Assembly: GCA_902582765.1 (NCBI GenBank)
Contig: CACHTK010000001.1
Span: forward strand, 5,870 to 69,869
Reading direction: 5' to 3'
Source: an uncultured Pelagibacteraceae bacterium
GTDB taxonomy: Bacteria; Pseudomonadota; Alphaproteobacteria; Pelagibacterales; Pelagibacteraceae
Length of the DNA stretch: 64,000 nt
Part shown: piece by piece, positions 8,911 to 15,888 of the stretch
How positions within the stretch are numbered: position 1 is the first letter of the stretch
How the letters are laid out: each line of letters opens with the position of its first letter
Made by a program: the position numbers and the translations under genes
Notes under the pieces: model-generated
The model's database searches: none
Told to the model about the DNA's origin: nothing
The model's input: only the letters and a program-made list of their open reading frames with translations

Positions 8911-8957
8911 TTGTTCAATTATAAATATTATTATAAATAACCATGAAATTCATTAAT
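8911..8957 (+). promoter_or_regulatory. Probable native tRNA-Leu promoter/leader; related copies at 13787-13833 and 15756-15802
   Basis: TTGTTCAATTATAAATATT...CATGAAATTCATTAAT precedes all three tRNA-Leu 5' ends with a few substitutions. Confidence 0.55.
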
Positions 8958-8996
8958 GCCCTCGTGGTGAAATTGGTAGACACAAAGGACTTAAAA
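8958..8996 (+). repeat. tRNA-Leu 5'-half direct repeat, copy 1 (att core, attL-like)
   Basis: 39 nt identical to 15803-15841; identity ends exactly at the end of the anticodon loop CTTAAAA. Confidence 0.95.
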
Positions 8997-9122
8997 AACA
9001 TAGGGTAGAGTAATTTTATAGTCTCATACTGTCTCAGACAGTCTTAAATCCCATTAAATCCTACACTTTAAAAAAACCTTTAATTATTTTTATTGGAAAA
9101 TATGAATAATAAATTTTCTCAA

Positions 9123-9141
9123 ACTAGAAGTGGACTAGAAG
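9123..9141 (+). repeat. Left arm-type repeat pair of cassette 1 (ACTAGAAG-tgg-ACTAGAAG)
   Basis: 11-bp period; same motif at 13731-13750. Confidence 0.75.
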
Positions 9142-9170
9142 CTAGGTGGATATAATAATATACTTTATTT

Positions 9171-10382
9171 ATGAATTGGATGGGATTTTGGAGAGCGCTT
9201 ACAGATACCACTGAGATAACAGTTATAGTAGCTGTAATAGTATTTGTATTCACATACTCAATCTTTACTTATTTTTCTACAGACGCTGACAAAGCTCTTA
9301 GGTATGCTAGATTTACACCTTCATTACTAGTTTCGATTGGTATATTTGGAACATTCCTAGGAATATTTTTTGCACTAGTTGATTTTAATGTAAATAGAGT
9401 AGACGAAAGTATTCCAGAGCTTTTATCAGGATTAAAAGTTGCTTTTGGAACAAGTATAGTTGGATTATTTTTAAGTTTAGCCTTTAGAGCAATAATTTTA
9501 TACAAACCCAAAAAAATTAAATCTACTGAAGAGGCTGATGTAAAAGATCTTTTAGCAAAGATGACTGAGGTAAAAGATGCAATTTCTGCTGATAATGAAA
9601 GCTCAGTAATTACACAATTACAAAAACTAAGAAGTGAAACTATTGATAGTTTAAAGGAAATGCAAAAATCTTTCTCAGAATTTGCAGCTGAAATGTCTCA
9701 AAATAACGTCAATGCATTAATAGAAGCTGTTCAACAGGTTATGGAAGATTTTAATGCTAAAATAAATGATCAACTTGGTGAAAGTTTTAAAGAATTAAGT
9801 TCATCTGTTCAAAACCTTGTGGAATGGCAAAATAATTACAAGACACATGTTGAGACTTTGAATGATCAGTTACAAACAGCTATATCAGGCATTACAAGTT
9901 CTCAAGAGTCACTTAAACAGATTTCAGAAAATATGGAGAGCCTCCCTAAATCAACTGAAGCATTAAAAGAAATTATGACAACAGTACAAGGACAAATTGA
10001 TAATTTGAACAATCAATTAGATGCTTTTGCACAAATGAAAGATAAAGCAGTTGATGCGATGCCAACAATTGAGAAAAATTTAAATGAAATGACCGAAAGT
10101 TTATCAAATTCTGTATCTAGTATAGAAAATATGTCTACAGAAATAAGAGATAGCGTTAAACAATCTATTAAAGAGACAAACGATATGCTTATTAATCAAA
10201 TCAAAGGATTAGACGAACAAATGCAAAAGGAAGTGACCAAAATTGTAGAAATTATGGGATCAAATTTAGCATCATTGTCTGAAAAATTTGTTAGCGATTA
10301 TTCTCCATTAACTAACCAACTTGTGAATTTAGTAAATTCTCTAGGAAGTGTTAAGAAAAAAACAAACAAAAAACCTGAATGA
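9171..10382 (+). CDS. zorA: Zorya anti-phage ZorA (MotA-like membrane domain plus long helical tail)
   Basis: Three TM segments with PSLLVSIGIFGTFLGI...GLKVAFGTSIVG, followed by about 290 aa of coiled-coil-like tail; overlaps the zorB start (ATGA). Confidence 0.88.
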   Translation: MNWMGFWRALTDTTEITVIVAVIVFVFTYSIFTYFSTDADKALRYARFTPSLLVSIGIFGTFLGIFFALVDFNVNRVDESIPELLSGLKVAFGTSIVGLFLSLAFRAIILYKPKKIKSTEEADVKDLLAKMTEVKDAISADNESSVITQLQKLRSETIDSLKEMQKSFSEFAAEMSQNNVNALIEAVQQVMEDFNAKINDQLGESFKELSSSVQNLVEWQNNYKTHVETLNDQLQTAISGITSSQESLKQISENMESLPKSTEALKEIMTTVQGQIDNLNNQLDAFAQMKDKAVDAMPTIEKNLNEMTESLSNSVSSIENMSTEIRDSVKQSIKETNDMLINQIKGLDEQMQKEVTKIVEIMGSNLASLSEKFVSDYSPLTNQLVNLVNSLGSVKKKTNKKPE

Positions 10383-11080
10383 AATTAAAAGCATTATTTC
10401 AACAACAGGATGATCAAGACGACCAGTGGATATCAATTGCCGACATGATGGCTGGATTGATGATTGTTTTTTTATTCATAGCAATTGTAAATCTTAAAGA
10501 CCAAATTGATAAATTGAGAAGTTTTGAGATATTACAAGATAGAATTTATAATGAGCTTTATGATGAATTCGAAGATGATTTAAAAAAATGGGTAGCTGAA
10601 ATCGATAAAGAAACTCTAACAATCTCTTTTAGGGAGCCAAAAATTCAGTTTTCTACTGGTTCTTCAGAAGTTAAAAGTGAATTTAAAAATATTTTAAACA
10701 ATTTTTATCCAAGATATCTAAATGTTTTATGGGACTTTAGAGAGGATATTGAAGAACTAAGAATAGAGGGTCATACTTCTTCAAGATGGCAAAAAGCTTT
10801 AACTATTGATGAGGCATATATTAAAAACATGGGTCTATCACAAGACCGCTCGAAGAATGTTTTGATATATATTCTTGAACTAAATTTAGGAACTAACAAG
10901 AATTGGGCTAAAGAGAAGATTGTGGCTAACGGCATGTCATTCAGCAAATTGTTATTAAAAGAAAATGGAGATGAGGATGCAATTAGATCCCAAAGAACAG
11001 AGTTTAGGGTGAAAGTTGATAGTGCTTATATAATTGAAAGACTTAGAAAAGTTTTTCAAGAAAGAAAAAATGAAACTTAA
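10379..11080 (+). CDS. zorB: Zorya ZorB (MotB-like TM plus OmpA-type peptidoglycan-binding domain)
   Basis: WISIADMMAGLMIVFLFIAI with the conserved Asp; IEGHTSS, NMGLSQDRS, RTEFRV OmpA_C motifs. Confidence 0.88.
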   Translation: MKLKALFQQQDDQDDQWISIADMMAGLMIVFLFIAIVNLKDQIDKLRSFEILQDRIYNELYDEFEDDLKKWVAEIDKETLTISFREPKIQFSTGSSEVKSEFKNILNNFYPRYLNVLWDFREDIEELRIEGHTSSRWQKALTIDEAYIKNMGLSQDRSKNVLIYILELNLGTNKNWAKEKIVANGMSFSKLLLKENGDEDAIRSQRTEFRVKVDSAYIIERLRKVFQERKNET

Positions 11081-11963
11081 CCACACATTTCCAGAATTAG
11101 AAAGTTTGATCAATAAAATGGGTGCTAAAAAGACTGTTTGGAAATCTGGCGTTAAGTATGAAAAAATAATTATTCAAAAATTATTATCTGTTGAAGGTGT
11201 TGACGCGAAATTAGATGACATAAAAATGGATGAACATGGCTTGATGTATCTAAATAATGAGCCAGTGGTTCTTTTTATAAAAGATCAATGGATTTCGGCT
11301 GATGAAATCAGAAGAGATCCGCTTGGCGGAAAAGGATATAGATTTCATATAACTGGAACATGTAAAACAATTGAACAAATGCAAAGAAGAAAAAGGTACG
11401 ATAGATATACTTTTACAGCTAATCAAAGTGGTAAATTTTCTGTAATTGCAAGAGAATCCAAGCATTCAAATAAAAAAATTAAATTAACAACACCATTAGC
11501 AGTTTGTATGAATTGTTTAATAGATCTAGAATATGACGGAGCAGGCTACTCATCTTCCGGAAGACCAAACACTGAAGCACGACAAGCTAGAGATTCTTTT
11601 AATATAAAATCTTTTTTTAAAAATTTTGTCCAAACTTTAATAAATAGACCTAAATATTCTGAAATGAGTTATCCTGATCCAGAATATACTCCTGATTTTA
11701 GAACAACCTCTAAAAAGTTAAAAGAAGCGTGGGGTTATAAATGTAGTAGATGCAAGGTTGATCTTTCATTATTAAGTCACAGAAAAATGATTCATTGTCA
11801 TCACAAAGATGGAAATCCTGGTAACAATGGTGAGACTAATCTTGAGGTTTTGTGTATTTGTTGTCATGCAGAAGAAGGAATGCATTTAATTAGACCAAAA
11901 CATATGAGAGAACAATTTGAGAAATGCAAAACTTTAAAACAAGAACAGGGTATCAAAATATAA
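11070..11963 (+). CDS. zorE: HNH endonuclease, ZorE-type effector of type II Zorya
   Basis: C-terminal CSRC...HCHHKDGNPGNNGETNLEVLCICCH HNH/zinc motif; third gene after zorAB; ATG at 11070 overlaps the end of zorB. Confidence 0.78.
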   Translation: MKLNHTFPELESLINKMGAKKTVWKSGVKYEKIIIQKLLSVEGVDAKLDDIKMDEHGLMYLNNEPVVLFIKDQWISADEIRRDPLGGKGYRFHITGTCKTIEQMQRRKRYDRYTFTANQSGKFSVIARESKHSNKKIKLTTPLAVCMNCLIDLEYDGAGYSSSGRPNTEARQARDSFNIKSFFKNFVQTLINRPKYSEMSYPDPEYTPDFRTTSKKLKEAWGYKCSRCKVDLSLLSHRKMIHCHHKDGNPGNNGETNLEVLCICCHAEEGMHLIRPKHMREQFEKCKTLKQEQGIKI

Positions 11964-11972
11964 TTGATCAAG

Positions 11973-12013
11973 ACATTGCAGGATTTTATACGATAACTAG
12001 AACTTGAGCAGAC
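11973..12013 (+). repeat. Degenerate internal copy of the cassette right-end motif
   Basis: AGGATTTTATACGATAACTAGAA (11980-12002) matches 13715-13737 at 20/23 positions. Confidence 0.65.
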
Positions 12014-12077
12014 AAAATAATATGCTTTTTCTCTCTTATCTCTCGTACATAGAGATATAATATTATAGATTACCTTT

Positions 12078-12242
12078 ATGGACAAATTTGAAATTTCATT
12101 AATCCAAGCAAGTGAAATTATTGAAATGGGTAATGGAGAATTAGATAAGGGTTTAGAGCAGATTAATAAAAAAGGATGGAAGATAATAGATGATTTTATT
12201 GATCCGCACACTGGTGAAAAATATTTTAAAATTGAAAAATGA
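12078..12242 (+). CDS. Small 54-aa hypothetical protein (below the ORF-track cutoff)
   Basis: MDKFEISLIQASEIIEMGNGELDKGLEQINKKGWKIIDDFIDPHTGEKYFKIEK; TGA overlaps the next ATG (ATGA); TATAAT upstream. Confidence 0.6.
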   Translation: MDKFEISLIQASEIIEMGNGELDKGLEQINKKGWKIIDDFIDPHTGEKYFKIEK

Positions 12243-12625
12243 AAATTTTAAAATTAACATTTTTGTCAGTTCTATTTATAATATTATTACTTCCTGCATC
12301 ATGTTCGACAATTTGGTCTGTTAATGAAATTTTAGGTAGGAATACCTACGATAACCCTGCATTTAAAGATTCACCATTTTATACCACTAATGATGAAATT
12401 GGTTTTGTTACAGATTATTGTAAAAAAAATAACTATTTTGGAAGAACTGGAACTGAAGAAGAAAAACTAAGAAAATGTATAAGTGGGGAATTGAGAAATC
12501 AAAGCTTAGCCTGGATGTTGGATGGCTTCATGTTTTATTTTAGCTTGATTGTAATACCTATATTTCTCTTTTATCTTTATTTTTATTATAAATGGCTAAA
12601 AAAAAATTATTTTAAAAAAGCTTAA
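12239..12625 (+). CDS. Hypothetical membrane protein / possible lipoprotein
   Basis: N-terminal hydrophobic stretch ending in LPASC, two further Cys, and a C-terminal TM helix. Confidence 0.6.
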   Translation: MKILKLTFLSVLFIILLLPASCSTIWSVNEILGRNTYDNPAFKDSPFYTTNDEIGFVTDYCKKNNYFGRTGTEEEKLRKCISGELRNQSLAWMLDGFMFYFSLIVIPIFLFYLYFYYKWLKKNYFKKA

Positions 12626-12626
12626 A

Positions 12627-13709
12627 ATGAAAAAATTTTACCTATTCATAAAAGTTATGACTCTATTAACATTTATATGTTCATATTCATCGGCAGAAAC
12701 TTTTCAAAAAGAACTATCTCAATTAAATACACTTAATGATGTAACAAAATGTTTAAAAAATCATTTAAAGCCCATGGGTGAGAAAGATGCTAGAGCCTAT
12801 TGTATTAATAAAAATATAAAAAAAGTGGATGAATTAAAAAACGTTATACATGGGTGGGGTGAATGGACCGAGGGATCTAATGGTTTTTATAAGAGTTTTG
12901 GTATTAAGATTTCAAATTTACATCCTAATGTAATTTTTGGATCAATAAAAATAAGTATAAATTTGAAACCAAGTAAATCAGATTCAGGAGTCAAAAAGTA
13001 CGAAAAATACTTAGGAACAGGACAAAGTATTGAATTAGATTTTAACAATTTGTTTATAGATGAATACATCAAATTTCCCGAATATTCTTCTTTTATTTAT
13101 AATGATATATCTGATTTAAATATCCCAAATGGTGAAATATCAAGCTGGACCATATTAGAAGGCAAGGCAATAAAAATTGCTAATTATAAAAATATTTTTA
13201 TGAAAAATGATCTTGGTAATCTTGAAAAATGTATAAAATTTAATTCTAAACCAAAAGATTTTTTTAAAAATGGAAATCTTTTAAAACGTGTTGATATTAA
13301 ATCCGCATGTCTTTATGAGCTTAGTGAGCAAGATAATAATATATACGATAAACTAGATTTAAAAATTTTAAAGAAAAATGAAGAAATAGCAATTTCACTT
13401 GAAAATAAAATTGATAATGATTTTATAATTACAGCAGGAAATTTATTAATAGAACTCTCTAATTGTGATAATAAAAAAGCAAAAAAAGAAGGCGAGGATA
13501 GTGATAATATTTTTGATAAATATGGTACTTTCATTGAGGGCGTAACATCACCTGGATATTTAATGCGGCAATTTACAAAACATGAGTTTGAAAAATATTT
13601 AATGCCAGGTGAAAAATTTATAACACCATTTGCTAATTCTGATAGGAGCATGAAGTATTGTGATTACAAACCAGCCATTCAAACTGTGAGAATTTTAAGT
13701 ATAGAATAA
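12627..13709 (+). CDS. Hypothetical exported protein with apparent two-fold internal repeat
   Basis: Signal peptide (SSA-ET); Cys-pair helix plus beta-rich segment occurs twice. Confidence 0.65.
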   Translation: MKKFYLFIKVMTLLTFICSYSSAETFQKELSQLNTLNDVTKCLKNHLKPMGEKDARAYCINKNIKKVDELKNVIHGWGEWTEGSNGFYKSFGIKISNLHPNVIFGSIKISINLKPSKSDSGVKKYEKYLGTGQSIELDFNNLFIDEYIKFPEYSSFIYNDISDLNIPNGEISSWTILEGKAIKIANYKNIFMKNDLGNLEKCIKFNSKPKDFFKNGNLLKRVDIKSACLYELSEQDNNIYDKLDLKILKKNEEIAISLENKIDNDFIITAGNLLIELSNCDNKKAKKEGEDSDNIFDKYGTFIEGVTSPGYLMRQFTKHEFEKYLMPGEKFITPFANSDRSMKYCDYKPAIQTVRILSIE

Positions 13710-13711
13710 TC

Positions 13712-13833
13712 TATAGGACTTTATGGGATAACTAGAAGCAGACTAGAAGCCAGGGAGATAAAATAAAAAAAATTTACTTATTCCTCTTGTTCAATTATAA
13801 ATATTGGCATAAACACTCATGAAAATAACTAAT
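13712..13833 (+). repeat. Right end of cassette 1 (arm repeat pair, A-tract and tRNA promoter)
   Basis: Gap-free match to 15681-15802 at 103/122 positions by manual count. Confidence 0.9.
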
Positions 13834-13872
13834 GCCCTCGTGGTGAAATTGGTAGACACAAAGGACTTAAAA
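13834..13872 (+). repeat. tRNA-Leu 5'-half direct repeat, copy 2 (junction between cassettes)
   Basis: 39 nt identical to copy 1 and to the intact tRNA 5' half. Confidence 0.95.
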
Positions 13873-13999
13873 GCCGAGGGATAGAACTTTAAGTCAGTCC
13901 ATAGTAGTCCAAGGTAGTTTAAAATATCCTATAAAATCACATAACTTTAATTTAACCTTTAACAAATATAATAAAATTAAGCTGGTTTAATATCTCAAA

Positions 14000-14019
14000 A
14001 CCAGTACCAAACCAGTACC
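14000..14019 (+). repeat. Left arm-type repeat pair of cassette 2 (ACCAGTACC-aa-ACCAGTACC)
   Basis: 11-bp period; same motif at 15700-15719. Confidence 0.75.
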
Positions 14020-14041
14020 TAAAAAGATAATATGTAAAAAC

Positions 14042-15673
14042 ATGAAAAAAAATTTACTTATATTTTTATTATTTATTTTAAGTACCAGTATCTCTTTGGC
14101 AAAGAATGATGAAATTATAACTTTAGAAGAAATACAAGATAATCTCATTAAAATGGAAGTTGAGAATAATCGTATAAAATGGTTTAAAGGTGGAGAAACT
14201 ATCTCAGCAGCTGAAAGCATTTCATTAAGCGAGAAGAAACAAGAAAAATTAGAAAAAAGAAGTCATTTAAAAAAGTCTTCACAATCTGCATGTGAAGGTG
14301 GGTCATCAATGAATGATCCAGAATTACAAAAGATTTATTGTCCAGCGATGATAATTAAGAGAGTTTTTTCACGAAATGAAAGGGCAGAAATAAAAAGGCC
14401 TGGAGATATATTTTATGCATTATCAGCGATAGAACGACTAATTTTTTCAAGTAGTAATAAATTTGTGACTACGCAAGATGCATTTAAAAAAAATGGAAAA
14501 ATTTATTATATGTGGTCAGATTTTAACAATAAATATAACAAATACGATGGTCCATATGTGGAAGTTGGCTCAAAAGATAATTGTGTTAGGTGGTTATGGT
14601 TTTATGATAATCGATATTTGTGTACAGATTACTCTAAATATACATTAAAAAAACTAGAAAAATTTAAAAAAAATCCAAATAATGAAAAAGTCTTAGGGAG
14701 ATATCTAATTAAATATATCCATAACGTAAGATTAGTAAAAAGTATCAGAGAAAAAATAGGTACCTCAAATTATGATTTAATAGGCGATATGTTAAACGCG
14801 AGTGTCAAAGATGTAATTAAAATAAAAGTACCTTCACAAACACTTGAACGTAGAAAGCATCTAAAAGAATACTCCCAAATACTTTTTGATATCAAAAAAA
14901 AAATTGAGGAAGATAAGTTTAAATCAATAGATAAAAGTATTTCAAAATTATCAAAAAAATATAAAAAATTACAAAGTTTGAAGCCTAATTCTTACAGAAC
15001 AGATAAGCAAGTTGATGAAGCGATTGATCTAATTTTTGATTTAAATAAACTTATTGAAAAGAGCTCTTCAAGTGCTGAAGTAAATAAAGAAGATAGAATA
15101 ACTGCTATTGCCTCTATAGAGTTTATGGATTCGTTGATTGATTCAATTCTTAGTATAATACCAAAACAATATAAGAGTGTCCCTAATAAACAACTAGGCA
15201 AAGATTTATTTGATGATGATGATTTAGACGAACTAGAAAAAATCATAAATAACATGATAAAAAAAAACTATGTGATTAAAAATGCTAAAATGACATGGAG
15301 CAAGAATACAATTAATAAATATATTGATACATCTATTATATTAAACAAATTTGATCAGCTAGGCATACAAGACAGTCTCAACAGAACATTTACAGAAGAG
15401 TCTGCTTTAAATGTTGCGCACGAACATATTGATAATAATTTAGATAAAAAAATTTTTAAAGATGTCAAAAAGATTGTTGCAAGTGTTGATAGAGGTAAAT
15501 TGGATAGTATAACTAGAGAAGTATCTCAAACTACTAAAGAGGTATCTAAAATAGCTTCAGAAATGTCTCAAAATTCCACTTTTAAATCTACAGTAACCCA
15601 ATCATATCCAGATCCGAAATTTGGAGGACAAAGTTTAAAAAAACTAATAAGAGCAGGAATAATAAAAAGATAA
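14042..15673 (+). CDS. Hypothetical exported protein, helical C-terminal half
   Basis: Signal peptide (SLA-K); four Cys in the N-terminal half; Lys/Glu-rich helical C-terminal half; 543-aa ORF. Confidence 0.7.
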   Translation: MKKNLLIFLLFILSTSISLAKNDEIITLEEIQDNLIKMEVENNRIKWFKGGETISAAESISLSEKKQEKLEKRSHLKKSSQSACEGGSSMNDPELQKIYCPAMIIKRVFSRNERAEIKRPGDIFYALSAIERLIFSSSNKFVTTQDAFKKNGKIYYMWSDFNNKYNKYDGPYVEVGSKDNCVRWLWFYDNRYLCTDYSKYTLKKLEKFKKNPNNEKVLGRYLIKYIHNVRLVKSIREKIGTSNYDLIGDMLNASVKDVIKIKVPSQTLERRKHLKEYSQILFDIKKKIEEDKFKSIDKSISKLSKKYKKLQSLKPNSYRTDKQVDEAIDLIFDLNKLIEKSSSSAEVNKEDRITAIASIEFMDSLIDSILSIIPKQYKSVPNKQLGKDLFDDDDLDELEKIINNMIKKNYVIKNAKMTWSKNTINKYIDTSIILNKFDQLGIQDSLNRTFTEESALNVAHEHIDNNLDKKIFKDVKKIVASVDRGKLDSITREVSQTTKEVSKIASEMSQNSTFKSTVTQSYPDPKFGGQSLKKLIRAGIIKR

Positions 15674-15680
15674 AAAACAT

Positions 15681-15802
15681 TATAGGATTTTATGGGACAA
15701 CCAGTACCTGACCAGTACCTAGTGAGATAAATTAAAAAAATTTTACTTATTCCTCTTGTTGAATTATAAATATTAGCTTAAACACTCATGAAATTCATTA
15801 AT
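15681..15802 (+). repeat. Right end of cassette 2 (arm repeat pair, A-tract and promoter driving the intact tRNA)
   Basis: Colinear with 13712-13833. Confidence 0.9.
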
Positions 15803-15888
15803 GCCCTCGTGGTGAAATTGGTAGACACAAAGGACTTAAAATCCTTGCCATTTATGGAGTGCCAGTTCGAGTCTGGCCGAGGGCACCA
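15803..15888 (+). tRNA. tRNA-Leu (TAA)
   Basis: GCCCTCG/CGAGGGC acceptor stem, AAGGA-CTTAAAA-TCCTT anticodon arm, long variable arm, GTTCGAG T-loop, encoded CCA. Confidence 0.97.

Follow-up and report, generated by a model that had tools for sequence, protein, structure and literature searches.

Members of SAR11, the group of bacteria most abundant in the ocean, combine streamlined genomes and few recognized mobile elements with a very large flexible gene pool. How genes could be gained or lost in such a bacterium is the question raised by a 64,000-nucleotide (nt) stretch of DNA, hereafter the window, from an uncultured Pelagibacteraceae (SAR11) bacterium (contig CACHTK010000001.1, in a 958-kb genome assembly which is 71% complete). 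Next to the tRNA-Leu(TAA) gene of the window, two small gene cassettes follow each other, and each displays at both ends a tandem pair of a 9-mer of its own, ACTAGAAG for cassette 1 and ACCAGTACC for cassette 2 (hereafter their codes). Neither cassette encodes a recombinase, and no match to the tyrosine recombinase family PF00589 was found in the window genome at this level of completeness. What role do these codes fulfill, and which protein reads them?

The answer that we favor, with a probability of about 0.8, is that the 9-mers are arm-type sites through which each cassette is assigned to a single integrase variant provided in trans. Three results bear directly on this proposal: the left and right codes covary across cassettes, the same architecture and the same codes are present in integrase-bearing relatives, and the N-terminal domain of the integrase covaries with the code. 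From these sequences, we infer that this domain binds the 9-mers and acts in trans, and likewise the present-day mobility of the cassettes, their route of transfer and an independent excision of the two cassettes of the window.

The locus is organized as follows.

8911-8957, + strand: native tRNA-Leu promoter region, bacterial arm of attL of cassette 1; all three junctions are identical from TTGTTCAATTATAAATATT on
8958-8996, + strand: core copy 1 at the left junction, tRNA-Leu 5' half to the anticodon loop; a 39-nt match to 15803-15841, without a tRNA 3' half after it
8997-9122, + strand: left arm of cassette 1, where three AGTCT-type repeats lie in phase (9020-9049) and the right-end motif recurs inverted (9049-9063)
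9123-9141, + strand: left-end code pair of cassette 1, ACTAGAAG, a 3-nt spacer and ACTAGAAG
9171-11963, + strand: first part of the cargo of cassette 1, a type II Zorya system (zorA 9171-10382, zorB 10379-11080, zorE 11034-11963)
11970-12011, + strand: decayed internal right-end motif with a single remaining code unit, ACTAGAAC (repeat family D3; alignment A2)
12078-13709, + strand: second part of the cargo of cassette 1, open reading frames (ORFs) 12078-12242, 12239-12625 (membrane protein) and 12627-13709 (secreted protein), the function of all three being unassigned
13712-13730, + strand: conserved right-arm motif TATAGGAyTTTATrGGAyA of cassette 1, kept at right ends of the cassette family and present as an inverted copy in left arms
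13731-13749, + strand: right-end code pair of cassette 1, ACTAGAAG twice
13750-13833, + strand: core-proximal right arm of cassette 1, with a GAGATAAAAT motif and a copy of the tRNA promoter
13834-13872, + strand: core copy 2 at the hybrid middle junction, tRNA-Leu 5' half, with a code-1 arm to its left and a code-2 arm to its right
13873-13999, + strand: left arm of cassette 2, beginning with GCCGAGGGA (tRNA 3' acceptor strand), with phased AGTCC repeats at 13892-13920
14000-14019, + strand: left-end code pair of cassette 2, ACCAGTACC twice
14042-15673, + strand: cargo of cassette 2, one ORF of 543 amino acids (aa) with a signal-peptide-like N-terminus
15681-15699, + strand: conserved right-arm motif of cassette 2
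15700-15719, + strand: right-end code pair of cassette 2, ACCAGTACC twice
15720-15802, + strand: core-proximal right arm of cassette 2, holding the promoter which now drives the intact tRNA
15803-15888, + strand: intact tRNA-Leu(TAA) (ARAGORN), whose first 39 nt are the core

Because the first 39 nt of tRNA-Leu recur twice (8958-8996 and 13834-13872), each time preceded by ~47 nt of promoter, two cassettes in one orientation are delimited, spanning 8997-13833 and 13873-15802. This 39-nt core is identical at the three junctions (the third being 15803-15841) and ends in the anticodon loop; the crossover would take place inside it.

Within this frame, ACTAGAAG starts at 9123, 9134, 13731 and 13742 and ACCAGTACC at 14000, 14011, 15700 and 15711, all on the + strand, so that the original prediction was exact as to the positions, the direct orientation and the 11-bp period of all eight copies. 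Each tandem pair occurs exactly twice in the window, while none is expected from 100 dinucleotide shuffles. Upon re-measurement, the distances which had been claimed are correct: the right pairs begin 103 nt upstream of the start of the tRNA or of its copy, and the left pairs 127 and 128 nt past the last base of the core. It was also confirmed that the two codes differ at the same three positions in all units (ACtAGaAg vs ACcAGtAc). The prediction further stated that 8 of 19 right-end mismatches between the cassettes fall in the 20-nt code stretch; the clustering holds but the count does not, since the recount gives 7 of 24 mismatches over the 133 nt preceding the tRNA. Other parts of the arms are common to both cassettes, namely TATAGGAyTTTATrGGA directly 5' of the right pair, which recurs inverted in the left arm at ~50-65 nt past the core, three AGTCy repeats in phase at 25-55 nt past the core, and a GAGATAA motif after both the left and right pairs.

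Full-length matches to the 119-nt right end number more than 50 in related genomes, most of which belong to the same genus. In 60 tRNA-Leu loci fetched from related Pelagibacter genomes, every core copy was located, which yielded 56 inter-core cassettes, 50 of them with a tandem pair at -103. These cassettes display ~25 distinct codes, which all fit the pattern xCxxGxxxx, C2 being invariant and G5 nearly so. With one representative per code, cognate left and right ends agree at 16.4 of 18 positions versus 11.1 of 18 for non-cognate ends, and none of 20,000 permutations reached the observed sum. The covariation between left and right 9-mers, which had been proposed as a check, thus passes over ~25 codes, and at least 16 of 18 positions match in 42 of the 50 cassettes. 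Identity between left and right is 0.96-0.98 in the units, a value inflated by the choice of pairs and register on these very units, and drops to 0.61 for the 2-nt spacer and to 0.33 immediately upstream; no cassette-specific signal extends beyond the 9-mers. One pair of cassettes from two genomes (L052 and L053) is of particular relevance: their cargo is ~100% identical over 2.3 kb and their right arms are nearly identical, yet the sequence of all four units is ACTAGTAG(C/T) in one cassette and ACTAGAAAC in its counterpart. Conversely, the same code accompanies unrelated cargo, the 151 cargo ORFs falling into 121 clusters which include restriction enzymes, helicases, Hsp70-like proteins, pilins and many secreted proteins. 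No integrase was found among this cargo, either in a Pfam summary of 114 representatives (25 commonest families listed) or with a hidden Markov model built on 8 known integrases.

Such identity between the two ends of a cassette could also be generated by copying, without any sequence-specific reader, through duplication at cargo capture, gene conversion or a nucleic-acid-guided check of end homology. The end similarity does extend over ~37 nt, including the GAGATAA motif (repeat D10), and an 'empty' fusion of a left end with a right end exists (L087). However, the spacers differ where the units are identical, and the conservation of C2 and, nearly, of G5 across codes suggests a protein scaffold. 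In addition, the arms displayed no inverted complement of the code, and the integrase-bearing elements described below contain five code copies, some of them inside a coding region. We regard an origin by copying as highly improbable.

Integrase-bearing relatives were reached by scanning IMG/VR for the exact core, which retrieved L128 and other contigs with the same left arm and the same tandem 9-mer layout in both arms; the left-arm types of cassette 1 likewise recur both in relatives and in integrase-bearing elements. L128 (7.8 kb) has the core at both ends as a terminal overlap and is therefore circular. Its 545-aa ORF starts 101 nt past the core and has a match to PF00589, just under the curated cut-off, at residues 367-522, and an alignment of this protein (A5) displays invariant K400, R485, H508 and Y518. 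L128 also encodes a protein with archaeo-eukaryotic primase (AEP) and DUF5906 regions, as well as several small ORFs without family. The 545-aa protein has 98 database relatives, mostly on contigs of up to 7-11 kb, most of these homologues carrying a precomputed PF00589 match, and it is also present in SAR11 single-cell genomes. It was further found at 327 metagenome loci; the results given for these loci rest on 80 of them, mostly located on contigs of 7.8-9.7 kb.

In the integrase elements, two copies of the code lie in the right arm and three in the 5' end of int, where they are found at codons ~9-16 and directly ahead of a conserved KFKLKFTD motif. Among the 51 int loci having an upstream right arm, 34 have their own code in it and the remaining ones are integrated beside something else. 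About 29 integrase-element codes were seen, including ACTAGAAAC, ACCAGCACA, ACTTGCACA and CTCGTACA, and 15 of 26 cassette codes are identical to one of them over 8 nt, versus a random expectation of 3.2 (none of 5000 trials reached 15). Exact 8-mers were used for this comparison, as a count allowing up to one mismatch is uninformative (random codes reach 16 of 26). Both codes of the window are among the matches: ACCAGTACC is found in L157, L200, L213 and L216, while ACTAGAAGT, in the integrase loci L207 and L214, is the counterpart of the code of cassette 1.

The cassettes could alternatively be dead remnants of such autonomous elements, left after deletion of int and of the replication genes, the 9-mers then being relics without present function. 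Neither the cassettes nor the window genome contain an integrase, and decayed ends and fusions do exist, at 11970-12011 in the window and, in relatives, in L087, L091 and cassettes with mismatched ends. In addition, the report on the tycheposons of Prochlorococcus describes remnants and partial tRNAs in genomic islands (Hackl et al., bioRxiv 10.1101/2020.12.28.424599). Relics would not be expected, however, to keep their 9-mers while spacers and flanks diverge, nor to undergo a concerted change of all four units next to identical cargo, as between L052 and L053, and well-matched ends (at least 16 of 18) are kept in 42 of the 50 cassettes. One code is also associated with many unrelated cargos, and in genomes the cassettes far outnumber the integrase-bearing copies. 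We consider this explanation unlikely. Rare integrase copies beside common cassettes are what is expected if the autonomous elements are mostly extrachromosomal or transient.

If an integrase reads the code, the N-terminal part of the protein is the candidate region. An AlphaFold model of residues 18-125, computed from an alignment of 40 sequences (predicted local distance difference test score, pLDDT, of 86), matches the arm-type binding domain of the HPI integrase (3JTZ) with a Z score of 9.5 and a root-mean-square deviation of 2.4 Å over 77 of 77 residues, the next match having a Z score of 4.4. Foldseek retrieved 3JTZ, 3RMP and 3JU0 with this model at a probability of 1.00, the title of the 3RMP entry being "recognition of attP substrates by P4-like integrases". 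Searches of PDB sequences with integrase profiles gave no match. On the basis of the model, the integrase is predicted to possess an N-terminal domain with a P4-type arm-binding fold.

The association of this domain with the code was assessed on 65 distinct integrases, by comparing residues 25-104, without the codons which contain the code, and the body of the protein (residues 121-545). After removal of body identity, identity of the N-terminal domain tracks code identity (partial r 0.40, 0 of 5000 permutations), while in the reverse test, the C-terminal domain does not follow the code (r -0.04). Individual pairs illustrate this exchange. L178 and L184 are 99% identical in their bodies but only 65% in their N-terminal domains, and their codes differ; L184 and L191 (bodies 66% identical) and L211 and L233 (57%) have N-terminal domains which are 100% identical and, in each pair, the same code. 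In pairs with near-identical bodies and different codes, 30-49% of the positions differ up to ~residue 135 and 1-12% from residue 141, the differences ending sharply at ~residues 135-140. Since the N-terminal domain tracks the code and the differences stop there, the arms and the first ~135 codons appear to form one exchangeable specificity module. These data support the earlier suggestion of lambda-type arm sites read by different cognate proteins, as relatives with the same arms do carry an integrase whose N-terminal domain follows the code. The proposed matching of code variants to integrase N-terminal domains gave the same picture: both codes of the window have integrase-bearing counterparts, and it is the N-terminal domain, and not the catalytic part, which follows the code.

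It could be argued that the reader of the 9-mers is a different protein encoded by the autonomous elements, such as an excisionase-like directionality factor or a repressor, the integrase itself reading the three AGTCy repeats and GGATTTTATAGGA. Directionality factors and repressors often bind tandem direct repeats, and Xis-type proteins typically use tandem head-to-tail sites at one helical turn (lambda X1/X2), so that the one-turn spacing of the 9-mers counts in favor of an Xis-like reader. The arms also hold other conserved repeats which could be integrase sites, several small ORFs of L128 are without family, and the left pair, at the start of int or just upstream of the cassette cargo, occupies a possible operator position. 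Nevertheless, the module linked to the code ends at ~residues 135-140 of the integrase and contains the predicted arm-binding fold, and the sites are located in both arms, like arm-type sites. To our mind, a reader other than the integrase is quite improbable.

Several observations weigh against the proposal that the 9-mers address the cassettes to integrases. The Pfam match to an arm-binding domain is weak (PF13356, E 0.056), and the PF00589 score of the 545-aa protein, 23.6-25.6 bits, is just under the curated cut-off of 27.1. Some integrases share a code in spite of divergent N-terminal domains, which are 47% identical between L178 and L222 and 49% between L207 and L214. Physical linkage could account for part of the covariation between this domain and the code: as the arms, the core and codons 1-135 lie within ~600 bp of the circle and are exchanged together, co-transfer alone would produce some covariation. 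Mismatched or decayed ends are found in 8 of the 50 cassettes, which are below 16 of 18, and no circular form of an integrase-less cassette was found. Finally, the integrase family is present in 4 of 141 genomes of the genus and is absent from the window genome, which is 71% complete; given this rarity, an encounter of a cognate helper with the cassettes of the window is hypothetical.

Based on these data, the following mechanism can be proposed for the addressing of cassettes by arm-type sites. The two integrase-less cassettes of the window would belong to a large family of small integrative elements which insert at the anticodon loop of the SAR11 tRNA-Leu(TAA) gene, and each of the two would retain a complete attachment site. 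In the excised circle, the expected order would be the right arm with its tandem 9-mer pair, the tRNA promoter, the 39-nt core and, finally, the left arm carrying that pair again. The 9-mers would be bound by the N-terminal P4-type arm-binding domain of the 545-aa tyrosine integrase, provided neither by the cassette nor by the host genome of the window but by the autonomous relatives of ~8-9.5 kb, which encode this integrase and a primase-helicase and are probably phage-satellite-like. The integrase family would comprise at least ~30 arm specificities, the first ~135 residues and the arms representing a swappable module on a common catalytic body and a common core. Cassettes 1 and 2 would accordingly be excised and inserted by different variants acting in trans and, because the middle junction is a hybrid (code-1 arm, core, code-2 arm), they could in principle be excised singly.

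A broader scheme, to which we give slightly less than even odds, is that of a combinatorial addressing system at one tRNA gene of SAR11, in which at least ~30 orthogonal pairs of module and 9-mer operate on one core and one catalytic body. Integrase-less single-gene cassettes, with defense systems or surface and secreted proteins as cargo, would each be tagged with one of the codes, and could be re-tagged by a concerted switch of the four sites, so that any satellite-like element passing by would select, excise and spread those cassettes alone which bear its own address. If true, cassettes borrowing an integrase would provide a testable mechanism for the gain, the loss and the separability of Zorya-like defense and surface genes in tandem arrays, and a main gene-gain route in a bacterium thought to be nearly devoid of mobile DNA. 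The family would also represent a natural set of ~30 arm specificities with one core, near-identical catalytic bodies and a clear swap boundary near residue 135; it could help to decipher how P4-type arm-binding domains recognize their sites and could serve as a source of orthogonal integrase/att pairs.

Among known systems, the heterobivalent integrases of the lambda and P4 type (lambda P1/P2/P'1-3, P2, HP1, mycobacteriophage L5 and P4-like; 3JTZ, 3JU0, 3RMP) offer a close parallel. As in their attP, attL and attR sites, the core at the junctions of the window lies in a tRNA gene, and tandem sites at one-turn spacing, unlike the core in sequence, are found in both arms ~100-130 bp from it, in the window as well as in the 50 cassettes and in the integrase-bearing relatives. 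A separate N-terminal arm-binding domain is a further likeness, restricted to the autonomous relatives, where its predicted fold is the one matching 3JTZ. In contrast to these systems, the cassettes of the window are devoid of any integrase, and ~30 arm specificities are found on one core, the arm-binding module and the arms being swapped on near-identical catalytic bodies. In lambda and HK022, the arm sites are common and the core specificity is different.

Other mobile elements also lack a recombinase of their own. Cis-mobilizable elements (CIMEs) are flanked by att sites, without recombinase, and depend on a related integrase-bearing element, for example beside the integrative and conjugative elements of Streptococcus. 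The cassettes resemble CIMEs by the absence of an integrase, by flanks corresponding to attL and attR of a relative and by their tandem arrangement at the same site; they differ by the many orthogonal specificities at one site and by being often single genes with their own tRNA promoter and 5' half. With integrons (IntI, attI, attC), they share co-oriented arrays of small, mostly single-gene cassettes and an integrase which is not encoded by the cassette. However, there are no attC hairpins, no adjacent integrase gene and no tyrosine recombinase near the array; the cassettes are bounded by tRNA cores and duplex arm sites, and the recognition sequence varies from one cassette to another.

The autonomous relatives look like satellites of the type named virion-encapsidated integrative mobile elements (VEIMEs) and resemble tycheposons. 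Pelagibacter-associated VEIMEs are described as small integrative elements which encode a tyrosine recombinase and a primase/helicase and occur in SAR11 genomes and particle fractions (Eppley et al., PMC9618062; bioRxiv 10.1101/2022.07.26.501625), and tycheposons of Prochlorococcus as stacked at tRNA genes with partial tRNAs and remnants between them. Common traits are the tRNA site, the partial tRNAs, the primase-helicase and the occurrence in IMG/VR and on metagenome contigs of 8-9 kb. The searchable text of these papers mentions neither arm-type sites nor element-specific codes, nor cassettes which lack an integrase but have complete attachment sites. In the literature found, there was likewise no description of many codes on one core, of integrase-less SAR11 cassettes with complete arms or of a module swap.

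Pelagiphages of the HTVC019P type (HTVC105P, HTVC109P and others) integrate at the SAR11 tRNA-Leu(TAA) gene (Zhao et al., bioRxiv 10.1101/410191) and were considered as a source of the direct reader of the code. While HTVC105P, HTVC109P and a MedDCM phage have the same core, the tRNA 5' half, this candidate was rejected, as their integrases are of ~295 aa and their attP contains an inverted pair of 11-mers near the core instead of tandem 9-mers at -103/+127. A search of IMG/VR with a degenerate right-arm pattern gave 24 matches, none of them beside the core. A host recombinase was considered as well. Indeed, PF00589 is matched in 94 of 96 near-complete Pelagibacter genomes, in most of them by one conserved tyrosine recombinase of ~325 aa, located roughly 90-120 kb from tRNA-Leu in the five complete genomes compared, which may represent a solitary Xer-type enzyme for dimer resolution. 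As a single conserved protein cannot account for ~30 codes, this candidate was also discarded.

Regarding the cargo of the window, the first three genes of cassette 1 were assigned by PADLOC to ZorA2 (E 2.9e-88), ZorB2 (1.5e-74) and ZorE2 (1.9e-57), and the consecutive order zorA, zorB, zorE corresponds to a type II Zorya system. Because a decayed right-end motif starts 7 nt past the zorE stop codon, cassette 1 is probably a fusion of two cassettes. The 543-aa protein of cassette 2 has no family match, and an identity look-up found nothing on record for it.

Other integrase families were also encountered. In IMG/VR (L144, L146) and in SAR11 single cells (L161, L162; L161 and L035 belong to one contig), they are associated with the same tRNA-Leu core and follow the same logic, with other words. 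A 515-aa integrase is accompanied by AGTTGCCCA or AGTTACCCA pairs in both arms, the words covarying between the two elements, and another integrase at the tRNA-Leu core, 31% identical, by GACCCA repeats near the core. In L156 (IMG/VR; integrase 30% identical), ACTCGAA-type pairs are present in both arms, with a third copy inside int, around a core other than that of tRNA-Leu, so that the addressing scheme would not be bound to one tRNA. A 104-aa open frame (G465:C12:21820-22059) matches integrase residues 26-104 only, i.e., the arm-binding domain alone, and represents either a remnant or a free-standing arm-binding protein.

In three relatives (L043:12667-14083, L052:12658-14116 and L072), a different element of 1.4 kb separates the last cassette from the tRNA. 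It possesses arms of its own, with CTAGTGTAGTT twice on each side and an inverted copy, and one Lys-rich ORF of ~397 aa (P0001), for which 31 metagenome homologues were found, mostly on contigs of 1.3-2 kb. P0001 has no Pfam, PHROG or PDB sequence match; its AlphaFold model (pLDDT 87, predicted template modeling score 0.90) has a best structural match with a Z score of 4.1 and suggests a possibly new fold. It was rejected as a recombinase on the basis of this structural score, of the lack of a sequence match and of its short contigs, which are without sign of circles.

In five complete genomes (G041, G205, G255, G263 and G271; loci L064, L066, L067, L073 and L086), a cassette right end with the tRNA 5' half is found 48-58 kb downstream of the intact tRNA-Leu. 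A conserved ORF, and not the tRNA 3' half, directly follows, and these distant right ends are an ectopic or rearranged array. At the junctions themselves, each stub of the tRNA 5' half is preceded by a full tRNA promoter and reads into the cargo. The left arms of many relatives also begin with GCCGAGGGA, as at 13873-13881 in the window, and the tRNA 5' half present at each junction could pair with this sequence into a mini acceptor stem.

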